Shown here: piece by piece, positions 6,902 through 35,635 of the stretch
Numbering within the stretch: position 1 is the stretch's first letter
How the letters are laid out: the number at the start of each line of letters is the position of its first letter
Origin: an uncultured Actinomycetes bacterium
GTDB taxonomy: Bacteria > Actinomycetota > Thermoleophilia > UBA2241
Direction of reading: 5' to 3'
DNA length: 64,000 nt
Assembly (NCBI GenBank): GCA_963767005.1
Contig: CAVYCN010000004.1
Location: 352,001 to 416,000, forward strand
Notes under the pieces: generated by a model
Told to the model about the DNA's origin: nothing
The model's database searches: none
The model's input: the letters and a program-made list of their open reading frames with translations, nothing else
Position numbers and translations under genes: made by a program

Positions 6902-8170
6902 ATGGCCGAGCACGACGACATCAGAGCGCGCCTGCGCATCGAACCCGCCGACCTCGAGGCGGTCAACGCCTTCTTGAGCGACCCCGACAACCCCTTCGTC
7001 ACGAGCCTGCTCGAGGTCGTCGACCGGTACGGCGGCGTCGACGCGGTCAATCGCGCGGCCGACGAGGCCGGCCGCCTCGAGAACCGGCTCGCGCGCCTGC
7101 GCGAGGAGCACTCCACCTACCTTGCGGACGTCGAGTGGCTGGCCGAGCAGCGCGACGCGGGCCGCTTCGTCAAGCTGGCCGACTACCGCGACGCCGTGCT
7201 GGCCGACGCCCCGGGCGCCGCGGCGGGCGGCGACGCGAACGCCGTGACGCTCGAGATCAGCGCCCTGCAGTTCTTCCCCTGGCTGATCGCCGAGGCCCGC
7301 GAGGCGATCGAGCGCCGCGAGCTCATGCCGGGGCGCTTCATCCGCGAGCGCAACATGGCCGAGCAGTCGCGCCCCGGCGGCGACCTGCTCGCGGTGTGCG
7401 CGGCCATGCAGGTGATCGGTGCGACGCATGTCGAGAGCCTCGACACGCGCGGCATCGACGGCGCCAACCTGATGGTCGGAGTCGAGACGATCGCCGGGTA
7501 CTTCGGCGGCATCGGCGAGCCCAACGAGCACGTCCTGCGCTGGGTCGACGAGCACCTGCACTACCTCACCGAGTTCGGCGTGCGCGAGGTCCTCAACTTC
7601 AACATGGGCACCATCCTCGCGGCCTTCGTGCTGCGCAAGCTGGGCGTGCGCAACCACTTCAAGATCTCGGTCTTCATGGGCGTCGACAACCCCTGGTCGG
7701 TGCTCTGGCTGCTCATGGGCGCGCGCCTGCTGGGCGGCGGCGCCGGCGGCACGAGCCTGAGCGGCATCAACTTCTCGAACTCGGCCGACTCCGACACGCT
7801 GCGCGGTGCGTCGGCGGCGCGCGAGGCCCTGGGCCTGCGCGACGCCGTGCGCTTCGAGCACCACGTGACCGAGGCCTACAAGTCGATCGTGCGCCAGCCC
7901 TACGAGCGCCGCGCCGAGGTCGTCGAGATCGCCGCCGACGTGCCCAACATCTCGGCAGAGCACGAGGGCGGCGACCCCGCGGTCGAAGCCGGTCGCAAGC
8001 ACCGCAGCGACATCCTCGACTACTTCATCTCCGAGAACGTGATCGTCGCCGCCGGCGCCATGGAGGCGCTGCAGCGCAACTACTTGGATAAGCACGCCGC
8101 GCTCAACCACACCGCCGCCGACCTCATCCGGGCCGGCATCGGGGTCAAGCCGGCGAGCCTGTTGCACTAG
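6902..8170 (+). CDS. Uncharacterised 422-aa soluble protein
   Basis: Typical host codon bias and globular alpha/beta composition; candidate conserved motifs (LEISALQFFPW, GYFGGIG, EHH, EHEGGDP); family not recognised. Confidence 0.8.
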   Translation: MAEHDDIRARLRIEPADLEAVNAFLSDPDNPFVTSLLEVVDRYGGVDAVNRAADEAGRLENRLARLREEHSTYLADVEWLAEQRDAGRFVKLADYRDAVLADAPGAAAGGDANAVTLEISALQFFPWLIAEAREAIERRELMPGRFIRERNMAEQSRPGGDLLAVCAAMQVIGATHVESLDTRGIDGANLMVGVETIAGYFGGIGEPNEHVLRWVDEHLHYLTEFGVREVLNFNMGTILAAFVLRKLGVRNHFKISVFMGVDNPWSVLWLLMGARLLGGGAGGTSLSGINFSNSADSDTLRGASAAREALGLRDAVRFEHHVTEAYKSIVRQPYERRAEVVEIAADVPNISAEHEGGDPAVEAGRKHRSDILDYFISENVIVAAGAMEALQRNYLDKHAALNHTAADLIRAGIGVKPASLLH

Positions 8171-12105: not shown

Positions 12106-12201
12106 CCAATCGAGGTGACGGCGACCGGTGCGCGCTGCTTGTGGCTTCGGCCAGGACGACCCCCCGTCCGCCACCTCCCACAGAAAGCAAGGAGGGGGAC
12201 G

Positions 12202-12594
12202 GTGGCCGACGAGAGCTATCCCGATGATCTGAAGTACTTCAAGGAGCACGACTGGGTGCGGGTCGCCGGCGACGAGGCGACCTTCGGCATCACCTGGTGG
12301 GCCCAGGACGCGCTCGGCGACATGGTCTACGCGAGCCTGCCCGACGCGGGCGCCGCGGTCACGGCCGGACAGCCCTACGGCGAGCTCGAGTCGGTCAAGT
12401 CGGTGGCCGAGATCTACGCGCCGGTGAGCGGCCAGGTGGTGGCCGCCAACGACGCCCTCGTGGCCGACCCCGCCCTGGTGAACGCCGATCCCTACGGCGA
12501 CGGCTGGCTCATCCGTGTGCGCCTGTCCGACCCCGCAGAGCTCGACGGACTGATGGACGCGGCCGCCTACAGGGAGCTGCTGGCGACGGCCTGA
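12202..12594 (+). CDS. gcvH: Glycine cleavage system H protein
   Basis: AAGGAGG RBS + GTG; HDW, GIT..AQDALGD, lipoyl motif ESVKSV, NADPYGDGW. Confidence 0.96.
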   Translation: MADESYPDDLKYFKEHDWVRVAGDEATFGITWWAQDALGDMVYASLPDAGAAVTAGQPYGELESVKSVAEIYAPVSGQVVAANDALVADPALVNADPYGDGWLIRVRLSDPAELDGLMDAAAYRELLATA

Positions 12595-12634
12595 CGCCGG
12601 CCGGGCGGCCGCGAGACGAGGGAGGTACGCGCGC

Positions 12635-13994
<1,360 letters not shown>

Positions 13995-14002
<8 letters not shown>

Positions 14003-15521
14003 GATCCCGATCGCCGCCACACCGGCCGCCACCGCCTTGCACACCATCTTCGAGAAGTCGCGGCCCGGGCGCCGCGCCTTCAGTCTGCCCGACGCCGGTC
14101 TGCCGTCGACCCCGGCCGGCGAGCTCCTGCCCGGCGTCGCCCTGCGGGCGCGGCCGGCACGCCTGCCCGAGATCGCCGAGGTCGACCTGGTGCGCCACTT
14201 CGTCGAGCTGTCGTCGCGCGACTTCGGCGTCGACAAGGGCACCTATCCGCTGGGCTCGTGCACCATGAAGTACAACCCGAAGATCAATGAGCGCGTGGCC
14301 GCGCTCGAGGGCCTGCGCGGCCTGCACCCCTACGAGCCCGAGGAGCTCGTGCAGGGCGCGCTCGAGCTCATGGACACGCTCAGCCGCTGGCTCGCCGAGG
14401 TGGCCGGCCTGGCCCGCGCCACGCTGCAGCCGGCGGCCGGCGCCCACGGCGAGCTCACCGGCCTGCTGCTCGTGCGGGCCTACCACGACGACCGCGGCGA
14501 CGGTCGCCGCGTCGTGCTCATCCCCGACACGGCGCACGGCACCAACCCGGCCTCCGTCGTAATGGCCGGCTACCAGCCCGTCACGGTGTCGAGCGACGCG
14601 CGCGGCGGCATCGACCTCGAGGCCGTGCGCTCCCTGGTGACCGAGCGCGGCGCCGAGATCGCCTGCCTCATGCTCACCAACCCCAACACCCTGGGGCTGT
14701 TCGAGGCCGACATCGTCGCGGTCGCGCGCCTCGTCCACGATGCCGGTGGGCTGCTCTACTACGACGGCGCCAACTCGAACGCCGTGCTGGGGCGCTCGCG
14801 GCCCGGCGACATGGGCTTCGATATCGTCCACCTGAACACGCACAAGACGTTCTCGACGCCGCACGGCGGCGGCGGCCCGGGGGCCGGACCGCTCATCGTG
14901 CGCGACATCCTCGAGCCCTACCTGCCGGTGCCGGTGCTGCGCAAGACCGGAGAGCACGCCTTCACGCTCGACTACGACCGGCCCAGGTCGATCGGCAAGG
15001 TGCGTTCCTTCTACGGCAACTTCGGCGTGCTCGTGCGGGCCTACGCCTACATCCGCGCGCTCGGCGCCGAGGGCCTGCGCGAGGTGAGCGAGGCGGCGGT
15101 GCTCAACGCGACCTACGTCCTGGCCGGCATCCGCGACCTGTTCGAGGTGCCCTACGACCGGCCCGTCATGCACGAGTTCGTGGTGTCCGCCGAGCCCCTG
15201 CGCGCCCACGGCGTGCGCGCCCTCGACGTGGCCAAGCGCCTGCTCGATCACGGCGTCCACCCGCCGACCACCTACTTTCCGCTGATCGTCAAAGAGGCGC
15301 TCATGGTCGAGCCGACCGAGACCGAGTCGAAGGCCGACCTCGACGCCTTCGTCGCCGCGGTGCGCGCGGTCGTCGACGAGGCCCGCACCCGGCCCGAGCT
15401 GCTCACGGCGGCGCCGTACACCATGCCGGTCGGGCGTCTCGACGAGGTCGGCGCCGCGCGCAACCCCGTGCTGCGTCAGCGCTTTGCCGACGACCAGCCG
15501 GTGACGGTGACGCCCCAGTGA
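13995..15521 (+). CDS. gcvPB: Glycine dehydrogenase (decarboxylating) subunit 2
   Basis: YPLGSCTMKYNP, AHGTNPAS, HLNTHKTFSTPHGGGGPG, EPTETE. Confidence 0.96.
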
Positions 15522-16279
15522 GCGTGACCGCCGCCGGTCTGACCAGCTTCGTCGAGCTGCCGCTGCGGGCCGACCCGGGGGCCGCCCAGATGCTGTGCGA
15601 CGAGCGCCTGCTCGCCGGGGCCGCGGAGCTCACGGTCCGGCGCTACGTGTGGGACCCGCCCGCGGTGTCGCTCGGCAAGTTCCAGGAGCTCGACGACGGC
15701 GCCCGCCGGGTGCTCGCGGCCGTCGGGATCGACGTGGTGCGCCGTCCGAGCGGTGGCCGTCTCGTGCTGCACGGCGCGGGCTTCGAGTGGTCGTTCGCCG
15801 TGGTCTGGCCGGCCGGCGCGCTGCCGTACGGCACGCAGGCGCCGTACCGTCTCGTGAGCGCCGCGATGGCCGGCGCCCTGACCGACCTCGGCGTGGCCGT
15901 CGACGCCACGCGCGAAGCGCCCTACACACGCTCCGCCCTGTGCTTCGCGAGCGCCCTCCGGCATGATCTGCTGGTGGCCGGCGACAAGACGGTCGCCGTG
16001 GCCCAGGCCGTGCGCCGCGGACGTGCGCTCGTCCACGGCAGTGTGCTCGAACGGCGTCCGCCGGCGGTGCTCGTCAGGGCGGTCGAGAAGGCCTGCGGCG
16101 AGCCCTGGCGCGGCGAGGGGATCGCGGGCGGCGGCTCCGTCCCCGACGCGGCCGCGCTCTGGGCGGCGTTCGTCGGCCGCCTCGTGGTGACCGGTGCCGG
16201 CGACGCCGGCTGGGCCGGGCTCGACCACGACGTGGTCGGGGTGGGCGTCCCGCCAGGTTCGAGAAGGGAGATGCGCTGA
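15518..16279 (+). CDS. Lipoate-protein ligase / octanoyltransferase (LipM/LplA family)
   Basis: RYVWDPPAVSLG.FQ, VVRRPSGG..VLH, CF, K..AxAQ, HGS motifs; located within the gcv operon. Confidence 0.85.
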   Translation: MSVTAAGLTSFVELPLRADPGAAQMLCDERLLAGAAELTVRRYVWDPPAVSLGKFQELDDGARRVLAAVGIDVVRRPSGGRLVLHGAGFEWSFAVVWPAGALPYGTQAPYRLVSAAMAGALTDLGVAVDATREAPYTRSALCFASALRHDLLVAGDKTVAVAQAVRRGRALVHGSVLERRPPAVLVRAVEKACGEPWRGEGIAGGGSVPDAAALWAAFVGRLVVTGAGDAGWAGLDHDVVGVGVPPGSRREMR

Positions 16280-17664
16280 TGACGTCGATCGTGGTGCTGG
16301 GCGGTGGCCCGGCCGGCTATGTGGCGGCGCTGCGCGCCGCCCAGCTCGGGGCGGGTGTGACGCTCGTCGAGGCGCGCGAGGTCGGCGGCACCTGCCTGAA
16401 CCGTGGCTGCATCCCGACGAAGGCGCTGGTGGCCGCCACCGAGCGCCTGCGCGCGGCGCGCGGCGCGGCCGAGTTCGGCGTGCTGATCGGCGAGCCGACA
16501 GTCGACCTGTCGGCACTGCTTGCCCGCAAGGACACCGTGACGGCGCAGCAGCGTGCCGGCGTCGAGCACCTGCTCAAGGGGCGCAAGGTCGCGGTGGTCG
16601 CGGGGGCCGGACGCCTGCTCGACGCGCACACCGTGCACGTCGAGCAGGCGTCCGGCGAGCGCCGCGAGCTTGCGCCCGACGCGGTGATCGTCGCCACCGG
16701 CTCGCGACCGGCGCTGCCGGCGGTCTTCGACGTGGCCGACCCGCGAGTCGTGACGAGCGACGGCCTGCTCGCGCTGCGCGAGCTGCCCGAGAGCCTCGCG
16801 ATCGTGGGCGGCGGCGTGATCGGCTGCGAGTTCGCGTCGATCTACGCCGAGCTCGGCACGCGCGTGACGGTCGTCGAGATGCTCGACCGCCTGCTGCCCC
16901 TCGAGGACCGCCGCGCCTCGGCGGCGCTCACGCGGGCCTTCGCGGGCGCCGGCATCCAGAGCCGCGTCAAGACGCGGGTCGAGCGACTCGACCTGTCGCA
17001 GCCGGGGCAGGTGAGTCTGGAGCTGAGTGAGGGCGCGGCCGTCGAGGCGAGCCTCGTGCTCGTCAGCATCGGCCGCGCCCCGCTGAGCCGGGGGATCGGG
17101 CTCGAAGAGGCCGGCGTCGAGCTCGACGGGCAGGGCTTCATCGTGACCGATCGCCGTCAGCGCACCTCGCTTGCCGGCGTGTTCGCCGCCGGCGACGTCG
17201 CCGGGCCACCGCTGCTGGCCCACTGGGCCTACCGCCAGGGCGCCGTGGCGGCCGAGAACGCGGTCACCGGCGCGGCCGTCGAGGTCGACGCCCGTTTCGT
17301 GCCCAACTGCATCTTCAGCCACCCCGAGGTGGCGAGCTTCGGCACGAGCGAAGACCAGGCCAGGGCGGAGAACCTGCCCATCGAGGTGGCGCAGGTACGT
17401 TTCAACGCCAACTCTAAAGCCGTGATAGAGGGTGAGGCCGAAGGCTACATCCGCATCATCACGCGCGCCGACGACGGTCGCGTGATCGGCGCGAGCCTCG
17501 TCGGGCCGCGCGTGACCGAGCTCGTGCACGAGCTCGTCCTGGCGGCCCGGGCCGGCCTCACGCTCGCCGACGTGGCCGACACGATCCACGCGCACCCGAC
17601 CCTCGCCGAGGCCGTGGGCGAAGCCGCCCTCGGCGGCGTCGGTCGCGGCATGCACACGCTGTGA
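16279..17664 (+). CDS. lpdA: Dihydrolipoamide dehydrogenase (L protein)
   Basis: GGGPAGY, GGTCLNRGCIP.K, GGGVIGCE, HAHPTLAE. Confidence 0.95.
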   Translation: MTSIVVLGGGPAGYVAALRAAQLGAGVTLVEAREVGGTCLNRGCIPTKALVAATERLRAARGAAEFGVLIGEPTVDLSALLARKDTVTAQQRAGVEHLLKGRKVAVVAGAGRLLDAHTVHVEQASGERRELAPDAVIVATGSRPALPAVFDVADPRVVTSDGLLALRELPESLAIVGGGVIGCEFASIYAELGTRVTVVEMLDRLLPLEDRRASAALTRAFAGAGIQSRVKTRVERLDLSQPGQVSLELSEGAAVEASLVLVSIGRAPLSRGIGLEEAGVELDGQGFIVTDRRQRTSLAGVFAAGDVAGPPLLAHWAYRQGAVAAENAVTGAAVEVDARFVPNCIFSHPEVASFGTSEDQARAENLPIEVAQVRFNANSKAVIEGEAEGYIRIITRADDGRVIGASLVGPRVTELVHELVLAARAGLTLADVADTIHAHPTLAEAVGEAALGGVGRGMHTL

Positions 17665-18638
17665 CCGGCGCCCCCGAGCGCCCGGCCGCCGCGGGCGGCA
17701 ACCTGGACGGTCGCGCCGGCGAGGCAGGCGGCGGCGCCAGCGAGGCAGGCGGCGGCGACAGGATCGGTGGTGGTGCCGGCAAGCCGGCCTGGCTGCGCGT
17801 GCGGTTGCCGCGGGCGGCGCCCTTCAGGGCGACCGCCGCCCTCCTCGACGAGCTCGAGCTCCACACCGTGTGCGAGGCGGCGCGCTGTCCCAACCGCGGC
17901 GAGTGCTTCGGGCTCGGCACGGCGACCTTCCTCATCCTCGGCGAGGCCTGCACGCGCGCGTGCGGCTTCTGCTCCATCGGCCGCGCGCCCTTGCGGCCGG
18001 CGCCGCCCGACCCCGACGAGCCGCGCCGCGTGGCGCGCGCCGCCGCCCGTCTCGGTCTGTCGCACGTGGTCGTGACGAGCGTCACGCGCGACGACCTGGG
18101 CGACGGCGGCGCGGCGCACTACGCGGCGACGATCGCCGCGGTGCGCGAGGAACTGCCGGAGACGACCGTCGAGGTCCTCGTGCCCGACTTTGACGGCGAC
18201 CCGGCGGCGCTTGCCACCGTCCTCGCGGCGCGGCCGCGGGTGCTCAATCACAACCTCGAGACCGTGCCGCGCCTGTACGGCAGGGTGCGGCCGGGCGCGT
18301 CGTATCGGCGCTCGCTCGACCTGCTGCGGGCCGCCACGTCGGCCGGCGGCGCCGGCGGTCGGCTGCTGGTGAAGAGCGGGCTCATGCTCGGCCTGGGCGA
18401 GAACGGAGACGAGGTCGCCGCCGTCCTGGCCGACTGCGCCGCGGCCGGCGTCGGCCTCGTCACGGTCGGCCAGTACCTGCGGCCGGCCGACGGCTGCCTG
18501 CCGGCCGCGCGGTACGTGCCGCCCGACGAGTTCGCCGTTCTCGTGCCGCTCGGCGAGAGTCTCGGGCTGCGGGTCGAGGCGGCCCCCTTCGTGCGCTCCT
18601 CGTACCGCGCCGCCGCGGCGCTTGCCGGCTGCGCTTGA
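17661..18638 (+). CDS. lipA: Lipoyl synthase
   Basis: KPAWL, CEAARCPNRGEC, CTRACGFC, HNLETV, RSSY. Confidence 0.95.
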   Translation: MTGAPERPAAAGGNLDGRAGEAGGGASEAGGGDRIGGGAGKPAWLRVRLPRAAPFRATAALLDELELHTVCEAARCPNRGECFGLGTATFLILGEACTRACGFCSIGRAPLRPAPPDPDEPRRVARAAARLGLSHVVVTSVTRDDLGDGGAAHYAATIAAVREELPETTVEVLVPDFDGDPAALATVLAARPRVLNHNLETVPRLYGRVRPGASYRRSLDLLRAATSAGGAGGRLLVKSGLMLGLGENGDEVAAVLADCAAAGVGLVTVGQYLRPADGCLPAARYVPPDEFAVLVPLGESLGLRVEAAPFVRSSYRAAAALAGCA

Positions 18639-19992: not shown

Positions 19993-21020
<1,028 letters not shown>

Positions 21021-21024
<4 letters not shown>

Positions 21025-22445
21025 GCCCGGAGCGCGCCAAGGCGGGCACGGCCGGCGACGAGCCGGCCGAGGCCGCCGCGCTGCGCGGCCTCGCCGCCGT
21101 CGACCAGGTCCTGCGTGAGCCGGCCGTCGCCGCGCTCCTCGAGCGCTATCCCCGCGACGTCGTCGTGCGCGCCGTGCGCACCGTGATCGACCGTCTGCGG
21201 CGCGAGATCATCGAGGGCGGGCGAGAGGCCGACGCGGCCGGCCTCACGCCCGCCCATCTCGCGCCCTGGGTCGAGCAGCTCGTCGAGACGGCCGTCTCCC
21301 CGTCGCTGCGCCGCGTGATCAACGCGACCGGCGTTGTCGTCCACACCAACCTCGGGCGCTCCGTGCTGCCGGCCGAGGCGCTCGCCGCGGTCGTCACCGC
21401 CGCCGGCTCGTACACCGACCTCGAGATCGACCTCGCCGGCGGCGAGCGGGCCACCCGGCAGCGCCACGTGCGCGACGTGCTGTGCGCCCTCACGGGCGCC
21501 GCCGACGCGCTCGTCGTCAACAACAACGCCGCGGCGGTGCTGCTCGCCCTGGCGGCGACTTGCCGCGACGGCGAGGTGATCGTGTCGCGTGGCGAGCTCG
21601 TCGAGATCGGCGACGGGTTTCGCATCCCCGACATCCTCGCCGAGAGCGGCGCCCGCCTGGTCGAGGTGGGCACCACCAACCGCACCTACCTGCGCGACGT
21701 CGAGCGTGCCTGGACCGAGCGCACGCGCGCCGTGCTGCGCGTGCACACGAGCAACTACCGCATCGTGGGCTTCACCACGCAACCGGCGCTCGACGAGCTC
21801 GTGGGCTTCGCCCACGAGCGCGACGCGCTGGTGATCGACGATCTGGGCAGCGGCGCCCTGGCCGACCTGCCGCTGCTCGCCGAGGAGCCGGCGGCGCGCG
21901 AGTCGCTGCGCCTCGGCGTCGATCTCGTCACGTTCAGCGGCGACAAGCTGCTCGGCGGGCCGCAGGCCGGCATCGTGCTCGGCACGGCCGCCGCCGTCGA
22001 GCGTCTGCGCACCCACCCCCTGGCGCGCGCCGTGCGCATCGACAAGCTCAATCTGGCCGCGCTCGACGCGCTGCTGCGTCTCTACCTCGACCCCGCGGCC
22101 GCCGTCGAGCGCGTGCCGACGCTCGCCCTCCTCGTCCAGGCCCGCGCCGCGCTCGTGGCGCGCGCCGAGCGGCTGCGTGCCGCGCTCGGCGACGGCGAGG
22201 TCGTCGACGCCGTGGGGCGCGCCGGCGGCGGTGCGCTGCCGCTGGCCGAGGTCGCGAGCGCGGCCGTCGCCCTGGCCCCGGCACGGCTCGCTGTCGGTGA
22301 GCTGGCCGCCCGCCTGCGGCGCGGGCGCCCGGCGGTGCTCGGCTACGTCCACGACGGCCGGGTCCTGCTCGACGTGCTCGCCGTGCGCGACGACGAGGTC
22401 GACGCGCTCGCCGCGGCCGTGGGCGCCGCCCTGACCGCGGGGTAG
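21021..22445 (+). CDS. selA: L-seryl-tRNA(Sec) selenium transferase
   Basis: VINATGVVVHTNLGR, VNNNAAA, SRGELVEIG, EVGTTN, DLGSG, FSGDKLLGGPQAG. Confidence 0.97.
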
Positions 22446-22450
22446 GAGCC

Positions 22451-24409
<1,959 letters not shown>

Positions 24410-25936: not shown

Positions 25937-26734
25937 ATGACGATGGAGCGCAGGGGACGGCTGGCCGGCAAGGTGGCGCTGATCACCGGGGTGGCCAAGC
26001 AGGACGGGATCGGCTTCGCCACGGCGCGGGTCTTCCTCGAGGAGGAGGCCGCCGGCATCGCCGTGGTCGACATCGCGGACGCCGTGCACGACTGCGCCGC
26101 CAGCCTGGGCGAGGGATGCACCGGGCACACCGCCGACCTCACAGCGGCCGCCGACGTCCAGCGCGTGGTCGACGAGGCGCTCGCCGCCCACGGGCGCATC
26201 GACGTCCTGGTCAACTGCGCTGGCATGGTCGTCTTCGGTCAGGACGAGGACTTCGCCGCCTTCCAGGACCTGAGCGAGCGGCAGTGGGACTTCGGCATCG
26301 CCATCAACCTGAAGAGCCAGTTCCTGGTGACGCGCGCCGTGGTGCCGCACATGATCGCGCGCGGCTCCGGCCGTATCGTGAACGTCTCGTCGGTCACCGG
26401 CCCGGTGGTCGCCAACCCCGAAGAGTCGGCGTACTGCGCGGCCAAGGCCGGCGTGGTGGGCCTTACCCGCGGCCTCGCGCTCGACGTCGCCAAGCACGGC
26501 ATCACGGTGAACGCCGTGGGACCGGGCTGGGTGGCCACGGGCTCGCAGGTCGAGGGCGAGGACGTGGGCGGCGACAACACGCCGCTCAAGCGCTCGGCCC
26601 GGCCCGACGAGATCGGCCGGCTGATCTGCTTCCTGGGCTCCGACGACGCGAGCTACATCACCGGGCAGCTCGTCGTGATCGACGGCGGCAACACGATCCA
26701 GGAGTACAAGGGCCCGAGCGAGCTCTACTACTAA
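25937..26734 (+). CDS. Short-chain dehydrogenase/reductase
   Basis: ITG...GIG, VNCAG, NVSS, YCAAK, DGG. Confidence 0.92.
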   Translation: MTMERRGRLAGKVALITGVAKQDGIGFATARVFLEEEAAGIAVVDIADAVHDCAASLGEGCTGHTADLTAAADVQRVVDEALAAHGRIDVLVNCAGMVVFGQDEDFAAFQDLSERQWDFGIAINLKSQFLVTRAVVPHMIARGSGRIVNVSSVTGPVVANPEESAYCAAKAGVVGLTRGLALDVAKHGITVNAVGPGWVATGSQVEGEDVGGDNTPLKRSARPDEIGRLICFLGSDDASYITGQLVVIDGGNTIQEYKGPSELYY

Positions 26735-26755
26735 GCGGCGCGGGGGGGATGGAAC

Positions 26756-27556
26756 GTGGCGGCGGAGTCCGAGTTCGACAACAGGGTCGTGCTGGTCACC
26801 GGCGCGGCGGGCGGCATCGGCAAGGCCGTCGCGCGGCGCTTCCTGGCTGCCGGGGCCCAGGTGTTCGCCGCCGACCTGCGGGCCGAGCCCCTGGCGGCCG
26901 CCGTCGCAGAGTTGTCGGCGTCGCCAGGCACGGCGATCTACCCCATCGAGGCCGACGTCACCGTCGTCGCCGACTGCGAGCGCATGGTGCGGGTCGCGGT
27001 GGCCGGCGGCGGGCGCCTCGACGTGCTCGTCAACAGCGCCGGCGTGTGGGTCGAGGGCCCGAGCGAGACCATGACCGAGGCCGACTGGGACGGCGTGGTC
27101 GACGTCAACCTCAAGGGCACCTTCTTCTGCTGCCGCTACGCCCTGCCGGAGCTGCGCAAGACGCAGGGCTGCATCGTCAACGTCTCGTCGGACGCCGGCG
27201 TGGTGGGCACGCCCGAGACGGCCGTCTACACGGCCTCCAAGGGCGGCGTCAGCCTGCTCACCAAAGCGCTCGCGCTCGAGCTCGCGCCCGACCTCGTGCG
27301 CGTGAACGCGGTCTGTCCCGGCGACGTGCAGACTCCCATGCTGCAGTACCAGGCCGACAACTTCGGCGGCGGCGACCCCGAGGGGTACCTGCGACGGCTG
27401 CTCGCCTCGTACCCGCAGGGCGAGCGTGCCCGCTTCATCAGGCCCGACGAGGTGGCGGAACTCATCTGCTACCTCGCCGGCGAGAAGGCGGCGCCGATCA
27501 CCGGCGCCCTCCTGTCGATCGACTTCGGGTCGAGCGCCGGCTACACGTATCAGTGA
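26756..27556 (+). CDS. Short-chain dehydrogenase/reductase
   Basis: TGAAGGIG, VNSAG, YTASK, VNAVCPG. Confidence 0.92.
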   Translation: MAAESEFDNRVVLVTGAAGGIGKAVARRFLAAGAQVFAADLRAEPLAAAVAELSASPGTAIYPIEADVTVVADCERMVRVAVAGGGRLDVLVNSAGVWVEGPSETMTEADWDGVVDVNLKGTFFCCRYALPELRKTQGCIVNVSSDAGVVGTPETAVYTASKGGVSLLTKALALELAPDLVRVNAVCPGDVQTPMLQYQADNFGGGDPEGYLRRLLASYPQGERARFIRPDEVAELICYLAGEKAAPITGALLSIDFGSSAGYTYQ

Positions 27557-27606
27557 CCGCGTCCGCGCGACCCGGCAAACCGCAAGGGAAGGAGTCCGAG
27601 TCCCCC

Positions 27607-29016
27607 ATGGCCGAGAGACCGTTCATCCACCCGTACATCCCCAACGCTGTGCCGGCCACCAAAGCGGCCATGTTGCGGGAGATCGGGCTCGACGGCGTCG
27701 AGGAGATCTACGCCGAGATCCCCGACCGCCTGCGCTTTCGGGGGCGGCTCGACATCCCCGAGCCGATCCTCGCCGAGCGCGACCTGCGGCGGCACGTCAA
27801 GGGCCTGCTCGACCGCAACACGAGCTGTGAGGACAACCTCAACTTCTGCGGCGCCGGCTGCTGGCAGCACTACGTGCCGGCCGTCGTCGACGAGGTCGTG
27901 AACAGGGCCGAGTTCCTGTCGGCGTACTGCGGCGGCAGCTACTCCGACCTGGGCAAATACCAGGCGCGCTTCGAGTTCAACAGCCAGCTCGGTGAGCTGC
28001 TCGACCTGGACGGCGTCGCCAACCCGATCTACGACTGGGGCGACGTCGCCGGGCGCAGCTTCCGCATGGCCAGGCGCATCACGGGCCGCCGCCGGGTGCT
28101 CGTGCCGCAGGCGATGAGCCCCATGCGCCTGGCCGAGGCGCGTACGCTCTGTCAGCCCGAGGTGATGCCCACCCACGTCGCGATCGAGCAGGTCGCCTAC
28201 GAACCGGCCAGCGGCCGGCTCGACCTCGCCGACATGCGCGCGAAGATGGGCGACGACGTCGCCGCCGTCTATTGGGAGAGCCCCGGTTACCTCGGTACGA
28301 TCGAGGACCAGGGCGCCGAGATCGTGCGCATCGCGCACGAGCAGGGCGCTCTCGCCATCGCCGGCGTCGACCCGATCACGCTGGGCGTGCTCGCGCCGCC
28401 CGGTGCGATCGGCGCCGACATCGCCTGCGGCGACATCCAGTGCCTGGGCGTGCACATGCACGCGGGCGCCGGCTGCTCGGGCTTCATCGCCTTCCGCGAC
28501 GACGACCCGGTGTTCGCGCAGGAGTGCCCGCTCGAGCTCTACACGCTGCTCGAGACCGAGACACCCGGCGAGTGGCAGGTCGCCGAGGCCCTGGCCGAGC
28601 GCACGAGCTACGGCGCGCGCGACCAGGGCAAGGACTGGGTCGGCACCGCCTCGGGCCTGTGGACGATCGCCGCGGCCGTGTACATGACGGTCATGGGTCC
28701 CCAGGGCTTCAAGGAGGTCGGCGAGACCTGCATCGCACGCTCGCACTACGCCGCGAAGCGCCTCGCCGAGCTGCCCGGTGTGACGATCAAGCTCTCGCCC
28801 GCCTTCTTCAAGGAGTTCGTGGTCTGCTTCGACGGCACCGGCAAGACGGTCGCCGAGATCAACCACAGGCTGCTCGACCACGCCGTCTTTGGCGGCAAGG
28901 ACCTCTCGGCCGAGTTCCCCGAGCTCGGGCAGAGCGCCCTGTACTGCGTCACCGAGTATCACAGCGAGGCCGACATCGTGGAGCTCGTGATCGCCCTCAA
29001 GGAGGTGCTGCAATGA
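27607..29016 (+). CDS. Divergent GcvPA-like (glycine decarboxylase alpha-subunit family) protein
   Basis: HPYIPN, NFCGAGCWQHYVPAVVDE, FKEFV, LYCVTE; canonical YTPYQ and REQHIRRE motifs are replaced. Confidence 0.88.
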   Translation: MAERPFIHPYIPNAVPATKAAMLREIGLDGVEEIYAEIPDRLRFRGRLDIPEPILAERDLRRHVKGLLDRNTSCEDNLNFCGAGCWQHYVPAVVDEVVNRAEFLSAYCGGSYSDLGKYQARFEFNSQLGELLDLDGVANPIYDWGDVAGRSFRMARRITGRRRVLVPQAMSPMRLAEARTLCQPEVMPTHVAIEQVAYEPASGRLDLADMRAKMGDDVAAVYWESPGYLGTIEDQGAEIVRIAHEQGALAIAGVDPITLGVLAPPGAIGADIACGDIQCLGVHMHAGAGCSGFIAFRDDDPVFAQECPLELYTLLETETPGEWQVAEALAERTSYGARDQGKDWVGTASGLWTIAAAVYMTVMGPQGFKEVGETCIARSHYAAKRLAELPGVTIKLSPAFFKEFVVCFDGTGKTVAEINHRLLDHAVFGGKDLSAEFPELGQSALYCVTEYHSEADIVELVIALKEVLQ

Positions 29017-30632
29017 GCGACCGCGTGACCGACGACGTCGCCGCCAAGCTCGAGCGCCTGGGCCGCCTGCGCCGCGACGGCGGCGCCCTGCGCGACTACC
29101 ACGCGCCGCGCTGGAACGAGCCCCTCGTCATGGAGCAGAGCGTGCCCGGCGAGCGCGGCGTGCTCGTGCCGCAGCCCGAGGCCGAGGTCAGGGCCGAGGT
29201 CGGCGACCCGCTGCAGTACGTGCCGGCCGCGACGCGCCGCCGGCAGGCGCCCGACCTGCCCGAGATCTCCCAGCACCAGGCCCTGCGTCACTACCTGCGG
29301 CTGTCGCAGATGACGCTCGGCATGGACCTCGGTTCCGACATCTCCGAGGGCACGTGCACGATGAAGTACAGCCCCAGGATGCATGAGGAGCTCGTGCGCT
29401 ACCACAAGCACGCCGAGCTGCACCCCTGGCAGGACGAGGACTCGCTGCAGGGCCTGCTGCAGATCGTGTACGACTGCGGCGAGTACCTGAAGGCGATCTC
29501 GGGCATGGACGCCATCACCCTGCAGCCGGGCGGCGGCTCGCACGCCGTCTACACCAACGCCTGCGTCATGCGCGAGTACTACCGCGAGCGTGGCGAGCTC
29601 GACCAGCGCACCGAGATGATCACCACGATCTTCTCGCACCCGTGCGACGCGGCGACACCCTCGGTGGCTGGCTTCAAGGTCATCACCGTCATGCCCGACG
29701 AGAACGGCTACCCCGACCTCGAGGCCTTCAAGGCGGCCGTGTCCGAGCGCACGGTCGGCTGCATGATCACGAACCCCGAGGACACCGGCATCTACAACCC
29801 GCAGATCGACAAGTACGTCGAGGTGCTGCACGGGGCCGGCGCCCTGGCCTTCACCGACCAGGCCAACGCCAACGGCATCCTGGGCTTTGCCCGCGCCCGC
29901 GACGCCGGCTTCGACGCCTGTCATTTCAACCTGCACAAGACCTTCTCGAGCCCCCACGGCTGCGAGGGTCCGGCGACCGGCGCCTACATGGTGACCGACG
30001 AGCTCGCCAAGTACCTGCCCGTGCCGGTGGTCACCAGGGTCGGCGAGCGCTACCACCTCGACTACGACCGGCCGCAGTCGATCGGCCGGGTGCGCGGCTT
30101 CCTGGGCAACTGGATGGGCGTGCTGCGCGCCTACGCCTGGATCCGCAGCATGGGCCCCGACGGCCTGCGCGAGGTGGCCGAGATCAGTGTGCTCAACAAC
30201 AACTACCTCGACCGCCTGCTCATGGGCGTGCGCGGCGTGAGCCGTCCGTACGCCGAGGGCCATCGCCGGCTCGACCAGGTGCGCTACAGCCTCGAGACGC
30301 TCAAAGAGGAGACGGGCGTCGGCACCGAGGAGGTGCGCGACCGCATGGTCGACTTCGGCATCCAGAGCTACTGGATGAGCCACCACCCCTGGGTGGTGGC
30401 GGAGCCCTTCACGCCGGAGCCCTGCGAGACCTATTCGAAGGCCGACCTCGACGAGTGGGCCGCCGTCATCAAGAAGGCGAGTGACGAGGCCTACGCCGAC
30501 GCCGGCACGGTCAAGTCGGCGCCCCACGCCTCGAGCTCGGGACGCATGAAGGGGCTCGAGGCCCTCGAGGACCCCGGGCGCTGGGCCCTGACCTGGCGGG
30601 CGTATCGCCGCAAGAACGGCCTGGCAGGGTAA
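29013..30632 (+). CDS. Divergent GcvPB-like (glycine decarboxylase beta-subunit family) PLP protein
   Basis: GTCTMKYSP, HP.Q, MITNP, HFNLHKTFSSPHG (PLP Lys), NNNYL, EPCET; ATGA overlap with the upstream gene. Confidence 0.9.
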   Translation: MSDRVTDDVAAKLERLGRLRRDGGALRDYHAPRWNEPLVMEQSVPGERGVLVPQPEAEVRAEVGDPLQYVPAATRRRQAPDLPEISQHQALRHYLRLSQMTLGMDLGSDISEGTCTMKYSPRMHEELVRYHKHAELHPWQDEDSLQGLLQIVYDCGEYLKAISGMDAITLQPGGGSHAVYTNACVMREYYRERGELDQRTEMITTIFSHPCDAATPSVAGFKVITVMPDENGYPDLEAFKAAVSERTVGCMITNPEDTGIYNPQIDKYVEVLHGAGALAFTDQANANGILGFARARDAGFDACHFNLHKTFSSPHGCEGPATGAYMVTDELAKYLPVPVVTRVGERYHLDYDRPQSIGRVRGFLGNWMGVLRAYAWIRSMGPDGLREVAEISVLNNNYLDRLLMGVRGVSRPYAEGHRRLDQVRYSLETLKEETGVGTEEVRDRMVDFGIQSYWMSHHPWVVAEPFTPEPCETYSKADLDEWAAVIKKASDEAYADAGTVKSAPHASSSGRMKGLEALEDPGRWALTWRAYRRKNGLAG

Positions 30633-30676
30633 GCTGTGCGGCCAAGGAGCCTGAACGACTGGAAAGGGGTGCCGGC

Positions 30677-30922
30677 ATGTGCATCGTGATGGGGCCGATC
30701 CGGATGGTCAGGGGACTGATCGCCGCGATGCTGAAGATCGTCGCGACAATCGTCCTCGTGGCGATCGCGGTGGTCGCGCTGGTCCCGCTCGGCATCGCCC
30801 TGGCGGCGGTGCTCTACATCAAGCGCGACGCCTGGACGCTGCCCGCCTACCGCTGGGCGCGCGACACGAGCGGCCGCCTCGGCTTCACGCCCTGGGGCCC
30901 GGGCGACGGCGGAGCAGCCTAG
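30677..30922 (+). CDS. Small hypothetical membrane protein
   Basis: AAAGGGG RBS-like sequence and a long hydrophobic segment. Confidence 0.6.
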   Translation: MCIVMGPIRMVRGLIAAMLKIVATIVLVAIAVVALVPLGIALAAVLYIKRDAWTLPAYRWARDTSGRLGFTPWGPGDGGAA

Positions 30923-31047
30923 GCCACGTCGCGTCGTCGTCGACCGGCGGTCGCCGCGGACCGGCGGGGGCGGCGAGGGCTGACCTTCAGCCCTCGCCGC
31001 CCCTGCTCGTCGTGCGCCGGGCGCGCGCATCCGTCAGAATGGAGCGC

Positions 31048-31605
31048 ATGAGCTCGCGAGGTTCGAACAGAGGTAAGTCGCGCGGACGGCGCCGTGTGGC
31101 GCCGGTCGCGGCAGCGGCCGGACGCGGCCTGGCCGGGGTCGCCCGCGTCGTGCTGCTGGCGATCATGGCGGCCGCGGTCGTGCAGGCGCTTGCCATCCTC
31201 GTCACATTCGCCCTACGGCGCTCGTCGTTCTCGTCGTTTCCCACGGCGCAGGCCATCGTGGCGTTCATCCTGGCGGCCGTCGCCGTGCTCGTCATGCTGG
31301 CGCTCGCCGTGAACTCGTCGTACCTGCCCGACCGCGTCGTGCCGCGGCGCTACCTGGGCGTGGCGTTCGGCGTCGTCTGGGTCGTCGGGGCGGCGGCGAT
31401 CGTCGTCGGCCTCGTGGGGTCGTTCCGTCTCGGCGCCTACGTCGCGGTCGAGATCCTGCCGGCGGCCGTGGGCTTCGTCCTCATGGGCCTGGTCACGCCC
31501 GGCCTGTACCGCCGCCCGGGTGAGGACGCAGGCGCCGGCGGCGGCGACAGCACCGCGCCGTCCCCGCGCGGCCGCCAGCGCCGCGGCGGGCGGGCGAAGC
31601 GGTGA
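31048..31605 (+). CDS. Hypothetical integral membrane protein (about 4 TM)
   Basis: Four hydrophobic helices; start at 31039 or 31048. Confidence 0.7.
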   Translation: MSSRGSNRGKSRGRRRVAPVAAAAGRGLAGVARVVLLAIMAAAVVQALAILVTFALRRSSFSSFPTAQAIVAFILAAVAVLVMLALAVNSSYLPDRVVPRRYLGVAFGVVWVVGAAAIVVGLVGSFRLGAYVAVEILPAAVGFVLMGLVTPGLYRRPGEDAGAGGGDSTAPSPRGRQRRGGRAKR

Positions 31606-32228
31606 CCGGCGTGACCGACGTTCCGGGCGCGCCGCCGCCGGCGGCCGAACACCCCTCGCCGCCGCCCGCCGAGCCCCCCGCGCCGCCGGCCGCCGCACCA
31701 CGATCGCAGCCGACCACCGAGCCACCTCGACCATCGGCCGCTGAGCCGGCGCCGTCGCCAAGCGACACCGGCACCCGTCGGTCGCGCCGGGTGGTGAAGA
31801 CGACCTACCGGGTGGAGAAGCCGGTCAAGGCCGGTCCGCTCGCCGTCGCCGGCAAGGTCGTCGTCGCCATCGTGTTCGCCGGCACCGTGGCGCTCGCCGC
31901 CTACCGCGCCGACCGGCCGGCGGCGACGCCGCACGACCACGTGCCCGCCGTCCTCGTGACCGGCGGCTTCGTGCTCGTCGCCCTGCTCGCGGTGGTGCTC
32001 ACGGCGACCGCTGTCGCGTGGGTCGTGCGCGGCTCGCGTTTCGCCGACAACCTCGCCTTCGCCGTCCTGTGGCCGATCGCCACAGTGCTCATGGCGATCC
32101 TGGCGGGTCTGTCGTTCGTGCCCCAGCACTACCTGCGTCCGGGGCCGGTGCTGGCGCCCGCCGGGATCGCCGCGGTCGTCATGATGGTGTCCGTCGCGAT
32201 CGTGTACAACAGGGCGCCACGGCGCTGA
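31602..32228 (+). CDS. Hypothetical membrane protein with Pro-rich N-terminus
   Basis: GTGA overlap with the upstream gene; about 4 TM helices. Confidence 0.7.
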   Translation: MTGVTDVPGAPPPAAEHPSPPPAEPPAPPAAAPRSQPTTEPPRPSAAEPAPSPSDTGTRRSRRVVKTTYRVEKPVKAGPLAVAGKVVVAIVFAGTVALAAYRADRPAATPHDHVPAVLVTGGFVLVALLAVVLTATAVAWVVRGSRFADNLAFAVLWPIATVLMAILAGLSFVPQHYLRPGPVLAPAGIAAVVMMVSVAIVYNRAPRR

Positions 32229-32249
32229 CGCGCCGCCCGCCGCGAGCCC

Positions 32250-33446
32250 ATGGCTGCGCCGTCAGAGCGCCGTCCCCGACTCGGCCTGATCATCAACCCC
32301 CTGGCCGGCGTGGGCGGCAAGGTCGGCCTCAAGGGCAGCGATGGTATCGAGATCGTGCGCCGGGCCCTCGAGCGCGGCGCCGAGCGCGACGCGCCGCGCC
32401 GCGCCGCGCTCGCCCTCGCGCGGCTCGGCCGGCTGCGCGAGAGGATCGAGATCGTGACCTGCCCCGGCGAGATGGGCGCCGACGAGGCGCGGGCCTGCGG
32501 CTTCGCGCCCGTCGTGCTCGAAGGCGTGCTGGGCGCGCCCTGGGGCGAGACCGGCGCCACCCTGCCGGACGGCGCGCCGCTGACGACCGCCGACGACACC
32601 GTCGCCGCGGCCCGCGCGATGCTCGACCTGGGGGTCGACCTGCTGCTGTTCGTCGGCGGCGACGGCACGGCGCGCGACGTCTGCCGGGTCGTCGGCACCC
32701 GCCTTCCCTGCCTGGGCGTGCCGGCCGGCGTGAAGATCCACTCGGCCGTGTATGCGACGACGCCGGCCAGCGCCGGCGAGCTCGCCGCGCGCTTCCTGCA
32801 CGACCGGCCGGCGGCGGCCGGCCTGCGCGAGTCCGAGGTCATGGACTTGGACGAGGACGCCTTTCGATCCGGCCGCGTGTCGGCCTGCCTCTACGGCTAT
32901 CTCTCGGTGCCCTTCGAGCGCAGCATGGTGCAGAGCGCCAAGGCCGGCGGCTGCGCGGGCGACGCCGCCGACCTGGCCGGCATCGCAGCCGACGTCGTGA
33001 ACGGCATGACACCGGGCGTGCTCTACCTGCTCGGCCCCGGCACCACGACCCGGGCCGTCGCGGAGACGCTGGGCCTGCCCAAGACCCTGCTCGGCGTCGA
33101 CGCCGTTCGCGACCGCCGCCTCGTCGCGAGCGACCTGGCCGAGGCCGAGATCCTCGACCTCGTCGCCGCGGACGGCCGCGGAGCGCGCATCGTCGTGACC
33201 GTGATCGGCGGCCAGGGACACATCTTCGGGCGCGGCAACCAGCAATTGAGCGCCGTGGTCATCCGCCGCGTGGGGCGCGAGCAGGTGACCGTCGTGGCCA
33301 GCCAGACCAAGCTGCTGTCGCTGCGCGGCGGACCGCTCCTGGTCGACACGGGCGACCCCGAGCTCGACGCGAGCTTCGCCGGCTACCTGCGGGTGGTGAC
33401 GCAGCTCGGACGCCGCACGATGTACCGGGTCGCGGGGGGCACCTAG
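32250..33446 (+). CDS. ATP-NAD kinase family / AcoX-like protein
   Basis: GLIINPLAG.GG..GLKGSDG, GGDGTARD, PAGVKIHS, TLLGVD, IGGQGHIFGRGNQQ, LLVDTGD. Confidence 0.85.
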   Translation: MAAPSERRPRLGLIINPLAGVGGKVGLKGSDGIEIVRRALERGAERDAPRRAALALARLGRLRERIEIVTCPGEMGADEARACGFAPVVLEGVLGAPWGETGATLPDGAPLTTADDTVAAARAMLDLGVDLLLFVGGDGTARDVCRVVGTRLPCLGVPAGVKIHSAVYATTPASAGELAARFLHDRPAAAGLRESEVMDLDEDAFRSGRVSACLYGYLSVPFERSMVQSAKAGGCAGDAADLAGIAADVVNGMTPGVLYLLGPGTTTRAVAETLGLPKTLLGVDAVRDRRLVASDLAEAEILDLVAADGRGARIVVTVIGGQGHIFGRGNQQLSAVVIRRVGREQVTVVASQTKLLSLRGGPLLVDTGDPELDASFAGYLRVVTQLGRRTMYRVAGGT

Positions 33447-34333: not shown

Positions 34334-35635
34334 ATGAAGGTTCTCATCGTCGGTACCGGAGGCGTCGGCGAGTCCATGGCCGCCATCGCGGCCCGGCGCG
34401 ATCCCAACAAGGGCTGGCTCGAGAAGATGGTCATGGCCGACTACGACCTGGCCAAGGCGCAGGCTGTGTCCAAGCGCCTGGGCGCGGACCGCTTCCCGGC
34501 CGAGAAGGTCGACGCGAGCAACCCCGACGAGGTCGCCGCTCTCGCCGGCAAGCACGGCGTCGACATCATCTGCAACCTCGTCGCGCCCGAGTTCAACCCC
34601 CAGCTCCTGCAGGCCGCCATCAAGGCCAAGACGCACTATCTCGACACTGCCATGACGGTCTCCGAGCCGCACCCCGAGGGCAAGATCGGCCCGACCCACG
34701 TCAAGCTCGGCGACAAGGAATACCCGCTCAGCCCCGAGTTCGAGAAGGTCGGCAAGCTGGCGCTGGCCGGCTTCGGCGTCGAGCCCGGCATGGCCGACTA
34801 CTTCGCGCGCTACGCCGCCGACCACCTCTTCGACGAGATCGAGGAGATCGGTATTCGCGACGGCTCCAACCTCGAGATCCCGGGCGCCAAGGGCATCGCC
34901 TTCGGCTTCTCCATCTGGACGACGATCGAGGAGTGCACGCAGCCCGGTATCATCTGGGAGAAGGACAAGGGCTGGTACACGGTCGAGCCGTTCGCCGAGA
35001 AAGAGATGTTCTACCTGCCCGAGGGCATCGGCTGGGTCGAGATCGCCCACGTCGAGCACGAAGAGGTCATCTGCCTGGGCCGCAACGCCCACCTGCTCAA
35101 GGGCAACAAGAAGGCCACCTTCAAGTATGCCCTCGGCGACGAGTTCATGGATGCCATCGACATCTTCAAGTCGACCAACATGGACAAGAAGACGCCGATC
35201 AAGGTGAAGGGCGTCGAAGTGGCGCCGCGCGACGTGATTGCCGCCGCCGCCCCCGACCCGAACGAGATCGGCAAGAAGTACGTGGGCCAGACCGCCGCCG
35301 GCACGTGGGTGCGCGGCAAGAAGGACGGCATGGTCCGCGAGGCGTACCTGTATCAGATCGCCGACAATCAGGAGTGCGTCGAGAAGTACGGCACCCAGGT
35401 CGTCGTGGCCCAGACGGGCTTCACGCCGGTCATCACGCTCGAGCTGCTCGCCACCGGCAAGCTGCAGGGCTACAAGGGCAACCCCGAGTCGGGCGTCCAC
35501 AACCCCGAGGAGTTCAGCGCCGACGACTTCGTGGCGCTCATGCCGGCCTACGAGTTCCCGGGCGGCCTGTACGAGATGGACTCCGAGTACAAGCGCAACC
35601 ACGATCACACGTCGCTGATCGCGGTGGCCAAGTAA
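34334..35635 (+). CDS. Saccharopine dehydrogenase-like / carboxy(nor)spermidine dehydrogenase-family oxidoreductase
   Basis: VGTGGVG Rossmann motif, YLDTA, GFGVEPG, FSIWTTIEEC, HEEV, V.PRD; strong codon bias. Confidence 0.85.
   Translation: MKVLIVGTGGVGESMAAIAARRDPNKGWLEKMVMADYDLAKAQAVSKRLGADRFPAEKVDASNPDEVAALAGKHGVDIICNLVAPEFNPQLLQAAIKAKTHYLDTAMTVSEPHPEGKIGPTHVKLGDKEYPLSPEFEKVGKLALAGFGVEPGMADYFARYAADHLFDEIEEIGIRDGSNLEIPGAKGIAFGFSIWTTIEECTQPGIIWEKDKGWYTVEPFAEKEMFYLPEGIGWVEIAHVEHEEVICLGRNAHLLKGNKKATFKYALGDEFMDAIDIFKSTNMDKKTPIKVKGVEVAPRDVIAAAAPDPNEIGKKYVGQTAAGTWVRGKKDGMVREAYLYQIADNQECVEKYGTQVVVAQTGFTPVITLELLATGKLQGYKGNPESGVHNPEEFSADDFVALMPAYEFPGGLYEMDSEYKRNHDHTSLIAVAK

Follow-up and report, generated by a model that had tools for sequence, protein, structure and literature searches.

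The window analysed here is a 64-kb stretch of DNA from an uncultured actinobacterium, with a GC content of 70-75%, that carries two sets of genes for a two-subunit glycine decarboxylase (P-protein, GcvPA/GcvPB): a canonical pair within a run of glycine cleavage (gcv) genes and, further downstream, a divergent pair accompanied by two short-chain dehydrogenase (SDR) genes and an AcoX-like gene. The divergent pair and these partners, hereafter referred to as the module, are the subject of this analysis, which followed up an earlier note on the same DNA. Relatives carry the labels Thermoleophilia or Actinomycetes. The features of the window are listed below (PLP, pyridoxal 5'-phosphate; ORF, open reading frame; CASDH, carboxy(nor)spermidine/saccharopine dehydrogenase).

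25937-26734, plus strand: SDR1, a short-chain dehydrogenase (adh_short), likely an amino-alcohol dehydrogenase (SSxTG plus C-terminal DGGxxxxE)
26756-27556, plus strand: SDR2, a second short-chain dehydrogenase (adh_short)
27607-29016, plus strand: GcvPA-like alpha subunit, 469 amino acids, with rebuilt substrate loops
29013-30632, plus strand: GcvPB-like beta subunit, 539 amino acids, with PLP lysine K309
30677-30922, 31039-31605 and 31602-32228, plus strand: three small hydrophobic ORFs between the beta and AcoX-like genes
32250-33446, plus strand: AcoX/ATP-NAD-kinase-family protein, 398 amino acids, with a GGDGT motif (Pfam NAD_kinase and NAD_kinase_C)
34334-35635, plus strand: CASDH-like gene, beyond an opposite-strand TetR gene
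12115-18638: canonical run gcvH-gcvPA-gcvPB-lplA-lpd-lipA, with the canonical P pair at 12635-15521
20050-24409: selD-selA-selB cluster, between the two P-protein loci

Successive genes from SDR1 through SDR2, alpha and beta to the AcoX-like gene are separated by 21, 50, -4 (the alpha and beta genes overlap) and 1617 bases. The canonical gcv run contains no gcvT.

All 14 motifs quoted in the earlier note were recovered in the translated proteins. The divergent subunits share 33.0% (alpha; 146/442) and 37.5% (beta; 186/496) identity with the canonical pair of the window, and both score above their NCBIfam equivalog cut-offs (NF001696 and NF003346; 405 versus 364 and 518 versus 441). Because these cut-offs are exceeded, pipelines name the pair gcvPA/gcvPB, the mislabelling that the earlier note had foreseen; plasmid-borne relatives are labelled in this way in RefSeq.

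Relatives were collected by using aligned alpha subunits as the query against 185,579 genomes; this yielded 381 confirmed cases, the best 80 of which were retained. The hosts of these 80 are Thermoleophilia, Desulfobacterales, other deltaproteobacteria, Phycisphaerae, Bacillota and Spirochaetes, to which database names add Bathyarchaeota. Plasmid records, 9 among the 30 matches listed and 48-52% identical, further add cultured Alphaproteobacteria, Rhodococcus, Bacillus and a haloarchaeon, and the cultured hosts include Rhodococcus jostii RHA1, Paracoccus aminophilus and Gemmobacter fulvus. Altogether, the divergent clade spans at least five bacterial phyla as well as haloarchaea. Of 24 genomes belonging to the same family as the window, 21 contain a match of at least 47%, compared with 0 of 16 other genomes of the same class. 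Several genomes carry two or three divergent paralogues. One locus (L049:3878-12963), which has no AcoX gene, holds a tandem of two divergent alpha/beta pairs; the pairs belong to different subclades, and each is accompanied by SDR genes of its own.

In a quick IQ-TREE analysis of 55 alpha rows, 39 divergent sequences were set apart from 16 canonical ones by a long branch, with support of 100 on both sides in the SH-like approximate likelihood ratio test (SH-aLRT), and all 43 divergent beta rows fell into one clade in a FastTree analysis (support 0.997). Unlike IQ-TREE, FastTree gave the alpha stem a support of only 0.535, with single-tip rooting. The approximately unbiased (AU) test rejected the two window betas as sisters (p-AU 2e-114), and with this an origin of the divergent pair by recent duplication of the canonical one. 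A second test (p 0.04) bears solely on placement inside the clade. Canonical rows had been chosen by gcv-operon context, not by assayed enzymes, and the divergent pair nests among them in neither the alpha nor the beta tree. The separate clade considered in the earlier note was thus recovered by the IQ-TREE alpha tree, the FastTree beta tree and the sister test, and nesting among validated GcvPs, which that note had named as refuting, was not seen with canonical rows defined in this manner. On sequence grounds, the divergent pair is best assigned to a family that is sister to the two-subunit glycine decarboxylase. Our literature search, which left subscription journals largely outside its coverage, turned up no publication on this family.

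Conservation within the clade points to a rebuilt active site. Beta residues C115, T116, K118, G175, H209, D282, A284 and K309 are kept in all 43 divergent rows; we take K309 to be the PLP lysine, H209 the stacking histidine and D282 the pyridine aspartate. On the other hand, 36 of the 80 canonical-invariant positions of alpha and 52 of the 119 of beta are lost, and new invariants have appeared at D114, E224 and S334 of alpha (47/47 divergent rows) and at D257, R419, R424, S456, H457 and T467 of beta (43/43). The counts over 43 beta and 47 alpha rows agree with the earlier proposal of a rebuilt substrate pocket with retained PLP residues. The new invariant residues are predicted from the alignments to lie in the substrate pocket, and R419, R424 and H457 might, at a guess, form a phosphate site. 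The beta model (predicted local distance difference test score, pLDDT, of 77) finds P-proteins as its best fold matches, followed by SufS and sphingosine 1-phosphate (S1P) lyase. That the pair is simply an ordinary glycine decarboxylase isozyme is hardly credible: it does share the fold and pass the equivalog cut-offs, but it has lost the invariants counted above, forms a separate clade and occurs in genomes without H or T protein. Clade-specific cysteines are not universal (C211 in 32 and C317 in 26 of the 43 beta rows), so a built-in disulfide in place of lipoate was rejected.

Positions of the human P-protein were mapped onto the alpha rows through alignment to the human sequence. PMC4767401 places Q366 in the lipoamide channel; the equivalent position is Gln in 14 of 16 canonical rows versus 0 of 47 divergent rows. 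R373 is modelled as a salt bridge to the H-protein, with K376 as modelled partner, in PMC7259800. At the R373-equivalent position, R or K is found in 16/16 canonical rows, and K in 1/47 divergent rows.

The partners of the pair are equally characteristic. Among loci whose flanks are long enough to judge, 59 of 62 carry an AcoX gene and 76 of 77 an SDR gene, in line with the conserved SDR and AcoX synteny put forward previously. As the linkage of SDR, alpha, beta and AcoX genes recurs across phyla, it is not due to chance. AcoX adjoins the pair in seven of the nine plasmid loci of cultured strains, and outside Thermoleophilia it lies directly before or after the alpha/beta pair; no AcoX was seen in the 14 canonical P loci fetched, the flanks of which are short. 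The GGDGT motif is invariant in 26/26 AcoX-like sequences, and the AcoX-like protein is modelled with a pLDDT of 89. Comparison with PDB sequences gave no match except a weak one to phosphofructokinase (PFK), no NAD kinase was among the Foldseek matches listed, and an Atlas search returned unnamed ATP-NAD-kinase clusters only. The AcoX-like protein is likely a small-molecule kinase. Long AcoX relatives include two fusions to PdxB (P0393 and P0394; 4-phosphoerythronate dehydrogenase) and two joins to omega-aminotransferases, one of which is probably a frameshift artefact. No fusion of AcoX to a P-protein was present among 6 long matches or 8 long representatives.

According to PMC10943186, AcoX lacks acetoin, NAD and pyruvate kinase activity and is required for acetoin dehydrogenase activity in E. 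coli. This requirement, with no substrate known for AcoX, is what could be expected if the AcoX-like protein were an ATP-dependent activator or cofactor-repair factor of the PLP enzyme rather than a substrate kinase, as are the location of AcoX among thiamin genes in P. carbinolicus and the two fusions to PdxB, a vitamin B6 enzyme. The fusions, however, make up two of six long matches and occur in other contexts, and the kinase motif belongs to a superfamily established as phosphorylating hydroxyl groups; we consider an activator role very unlikely.

The clearest clue to the substrate comes from the dehydrogenases. SDR1 orthologues are 46-74% identical across phyla, with T154 and E256 invariant in 16/16 aligned rows, and of the 10 SDRs encoded by the window's genome SDR1 alone has both the SSxTG and the DGGxxxxE motif. 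An SDR with both motifs is found in 58/112 loci, an undercount in that the strict pattern misses SSATG variants. For the SDR of the Gemmobacter operon, the best PDB hits are 6CI9 and 6CI8 (E 3e-66; four such entries, then 6e-46), and FabG-like entries score worse by about 20 orders of magnitude. These structures are presumably those of the M. smegmatis aminopropanol dehydrogenase, in which the amine is reportedly bound by a threonine and a C-terminal glutamate; equivalents of both residues are kept in SDR1 orthologues (16/16 rows). The SDR of locus L097 gave no PDB match at 1e-42. Top PDB matches of SDR2 include 2,3-butanediol dehydrogenases and are unspecific, and SDR2 orthologues 53-63% identical occur in Desulfobacterales, Phycisphaerae, Firmicutes and Spirochaetes loci. 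SDR2 likely provides the opposite stereospecificity or reduces the product.

The earlier note had proposed an oxidative, lipoate-dependent cleavage of an amino acid or amine other than glycine, with H and L proteins borrowed from the canonical operon. The window's genome does encode one GcvH, as do 43 of 50 genomes tested that carry a divergent pair (full GcvH); the canonical operon lies ~12 kb upstream in the window and ~6 kb away in L096, and AcoX accompanies a lipoyl-dependent complex elsewhere (PMC10943186, PMC3543383). The two GCV_T matches of the window's genome read, from sequence, as a long GcvT with an SHMT-like C-terminal half, encoded at G000:C2:315952-318801 and followed by a transketolase-like gene, and as a dimethylglycine-dehydrogenase-like protein. 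Long GcvT genes of this kind lie next to gcvH in L096 and L122-L124. No GcvH, LplA or LipA match was obtained in any of the 80 loci (GcvT was not among the queries), and the sole L-like match, a 26% match inside a grd cluster, was rejected upon being read as thioredoxin reductase. Among the seven GcvH-less genomes, six also lack canonical beta.

A sample of 151 genomes from the family of genome G027 was drawn with a 90% completeness filter, per-genome completeness values not being given. Divergent beta is present in 11 of these, five of which are without canonical beta, and GcvH and GcvT were not found in these five. In four of the five, all MAGs (metagenome-assembled genomes), LplA/B and LipA were not found either, and the domains read were of the biotin type only, with three weak partial biotin/lipoyl matches left unread. 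The fifth genome, G032, contains lipoyl E2 domains, LplA and LipA. LplA/B is present in two of three further H-less genomes and absent from one. At least five misses out of 11 would be expected with p=0.003 at a miss rate of 10% and p=0.05 at 20%, although these genomes are kin and so not independent. Neither lipoate dependence nor the borrowing of H and L proteins is upheld by these data: in four MAGs neither a canonical P nor GcvH, GcvT, LplA/B, LipA or a lipoyl domain could be detected, and the alpha subunit has lost the R373 equivalent and, relative to canonical rows, the glutamine at the Q366 position. The borrowing scheme therefore seems most doubtful, and the divergent pair likely works without lipoate, judging from gene content.

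We tentatively favour a lipoate-free pathway in which the SDRs, a kinase and a PLP phospho-lyase act in this order on a vicinal amino alcohol, an assignment whose chances we put somewhat below even. The rival readings of C-C cleavage, plain decarboxylation and an activator role of AcoX would likewise do without lipoate. In the favoured pathway, a permease would import an amino alcohol of the type R-CHOH-CH2-NH2 that probably bears either another amino group or a carboxylate. SDR1 and SDR2 would interconvert the amino alcohol and the amino ketone, thereby fixing the stereoisomer, and the AcoX-like protein would use ATP to phosphorylate the substrate hydroxyl. The alpha/beta PLP enzyme would then form an aldimine at K309 and eliminate the phosphate, held at the suggested R419/R424/H457 site, to give ammonia and an aldehyde, which neighbouring dehydrogenases and acyl-CoA synthetases would oxidise and activate. 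Conversion of 4-amino-3-hydroxybutyrate to succinate semialdehyde, or of 2-hydroxyputrescine to 4-aminobutanal, may serve as examples only; the substrate probably differs between subclades. Taken more broadly, the chances appear evenly balanced that bacteria and archaea have repurposed the GcvP fold as a phospho-lyase or C-C lyase that needs no lipoate and serves a hitherto undescribed catabolism of amino alcohols or polyamine-derived compounds, whereby the orphan AcoX kinase family would gain its first real substrate.

The neighbourhood of the module bears on the chemistry. The Gemmobacter and R. jostii RHA1 loci contain a copper amine oxidase and an acyl-CoA synthetase, the R. qingshengii locus a permease, an acyl-CoA synthetase and a deacylase, and in Roseicitreum the run includes genes for an aldehyde dehydrogenase and for a tricarboxylate transporter. 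An acyl-CoA synthetase and an amine oxidase would use both products of a lipoate-free C-C cleavage, whereby an SDR-made alpha-amino ketone is split into an acid (or acyl-phosphate) and an amine, or a phosphorylated amino diol undergoes an S1P-lyase-like retro-aldol reaction. Such a cleavage would keep the bond-breaking geometry of a decarboxylase, which is established PLP chemistry, S1P lyase appears as one of the remoter fold matches of beta, and there is a parallel in a butanediol/acetoin operon with AcoX (PMC10943186). Hydrolytic C-C cleavage, however, needs no kinase, yet AcoX is almost always linked, and the clade has no universal cysteine of its own; we regard this option as rather unlikely.

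Near the loci of anaerobes, polyamine ABC transporters, agmatinase, CASDH-like genes and class III transaminases are often found, as are sigma-54 regulators, NhaC-type transporters and glycine/sarcosine reductase genes. Several lineages thus have polyamine transporters and a CASDH-like gene in the neighbourhood, which would also suit a plain non-oxidative PLP decarboxylase acting on a hydroxy- or diamino acid (CobD/PduX-like, or a carboxy-polyamine), with SDR and kinase before or after it. This would be the smallest step from GcvP chemistry, and the new acidic residues (D257 and E256 of beta; D114 of alpha) suit a cationic substrate. The CASDH-like gene is nevertheless found in only 38/80 loci, mostly in one lineage (Thermoleophilia), and in the window lies beyond the opposite-strand TetR gene; moreover, the fixed pairing of kinase and SDR is left unexplained, making a plain decarboxylase an unlikely solution. 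Distant CASDH-like homologues adjoin the module in L047, L060 and L094, and the gene is a possible accessory.

Other loci carry glycerate kinase, DhaKL or hydantoinases, and subclades for this reason likely differ in substrate. In eight loci (L017, L018, L027, L028, L029, L040, L043 and L079), a recurring cluster lies upstream of the pair, beside or between the SDR genes, and consists of an FGGY kinase, a permease, a GntR regulator, a class III aminotransferase, a SIS-domain deaminase-like protein and an ArgE-type deacylase; it may represent an amino-sugar pathway linked to the module. In the Bacillota loci L052, L057, L059, L060 and L101, a grdX/grdE/grdB-type selenoprotein reductase operon follows immediately downstream of the module. 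The earlier note had also sought the substrate among demethylation products of MttB proteins. This link is weak: the window's genome has 41 MttB-family matches (for example C3:158476-159954 and C4:145419-146813), and proximity to the module is consequently unspecific. A demethylated amino alcohol is a possible substrate. Seven of the 41 contain one in-frame TAG and one contains a TGA; the in-frame TAG codons suggest pyrrolysine use in this actinobacterium.

Several observations weigh against the proposed amino-alcohol phospho-lyase pathway. As to the enzyme, most genomes with a divergent pair do encode GcvH, seven being without it; the H-less genomes are MAGs of related organisms, and in the family of G027 the gcv genes are linked to lplA. 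Gaps in assemblies do occur, since G029 has a canonical beta fragment without GcvH. The K376-equivalent position is still Lys in 29/47 divergent rows, and the R419/R424/H457 phosphate site is conjectural. With regard to the kinase, AcoX is missing from 3/62 loci and also from the Bacillus F19 and Natronosalvus loci, and Foldseek gave weak partial matches of the AcoX-like model to diacylglycerol kinase (DAGK) and PFK, none of them at E<=0.001. Finally, the strict SDR signature is missing from 40/98 SDR-bearing loci, 6CI9 ranks only 14th of 16 by whole-profile score for the SDR1-orthologue profile, and SDR1 alone matches FabG-like proteins first.

The three small ORFs between the beta and AcoX-like genes probably form a lineage-specific insert outside the core of the module. 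Within this 1.6-kb gap, the 81- and 188-amino-acid ORFs have no NCBIfam match at a strict 1e-62 and the 208-amino-acid ORF has no match in NCBIfam or Pfam. A sigma-70 promoter was looked for and none was found; terminator counts are at chance level. As in the window, selB lies upstream of the divergent module in several other Thermoleophilia loci. Elsewhere in the window, a 422-amino-acid ORF at 6902-8170, after a corrinoid protein gene, has no NCBIfam or Pfam match.

Among known systems, the module resembles the aminoacetone/aminopropanol pathway of a Rhodococcus-Mycobacterium microcompartment, which reportedly consists of an SDR, a kinase and a PLP phospho-lyase: this logic, the SDR motifs and the closeness of the Gemmobacter SDR to 6CI9 are shared. 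The kinase and lyase of that pathway are said to be of the APH type and a class III aminotransferase, respectively, families other than those of the module. No microcompartment shell genes were noticed in the loci examined, where no search was aimed at them. A kinase followed by a PLP lyase is likewise found in sphingolipid breakdown, in which sphingosine kinase, of the DAGK/NADK superfamily, precedes S1P lyase, a fold-type-I PLP enzyme acting on a phosphorylated amino alcohol; the S1P lyase structure 3MAF is a distant fold match of beta. S1P lyase is, however, homodimeric, with 14% identity, and its retro-aldol chemistry is only conjectural for the module's enzyme.

With AcoX of the P. putida acoXABC-bdhA operon (PMC10943186), the module's protein shares by annotation the Pfam NAD-kinase-like family; both are encoded next to an alcohol dehydrogenase and to an alpha/beta cleavage enzyme that depends on a cofactor. 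In contrast to that operon, the module combines AcoX with a PLP enzyme and has no lipoyl E2 linked to it. The closest relatives remain GcvPA/GcvPB themselves (T. thermophilus 1WYT/1WYU/1WYV), with which the divergent pair has in common the fold, the alpha/beta split, the HKT lysine motif, the stacking histidine, the pyridine aspartate and CTxK. It departs from them in the replacement of YTPYQ, REQH, NIC, HGTN, NPNT, HEF and PxYFP, in having no linked gcvH, in its occurrence in MAGs without a detectable lipoyl system and in its AcoX and SDR partners. To our knowledge, P-proteins are known for one reaction. If the proposal is true, the clade would represent new chemistry on the P-protein fold together with an unmapped amine pathway, through which the orphan AcoX family becomes testable. 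Since the gcvPA/gcvPB cut-offs let the divergent genes through, MAGs may be wrongly credited with glycine cleavage or with the reductive glycine pathway.

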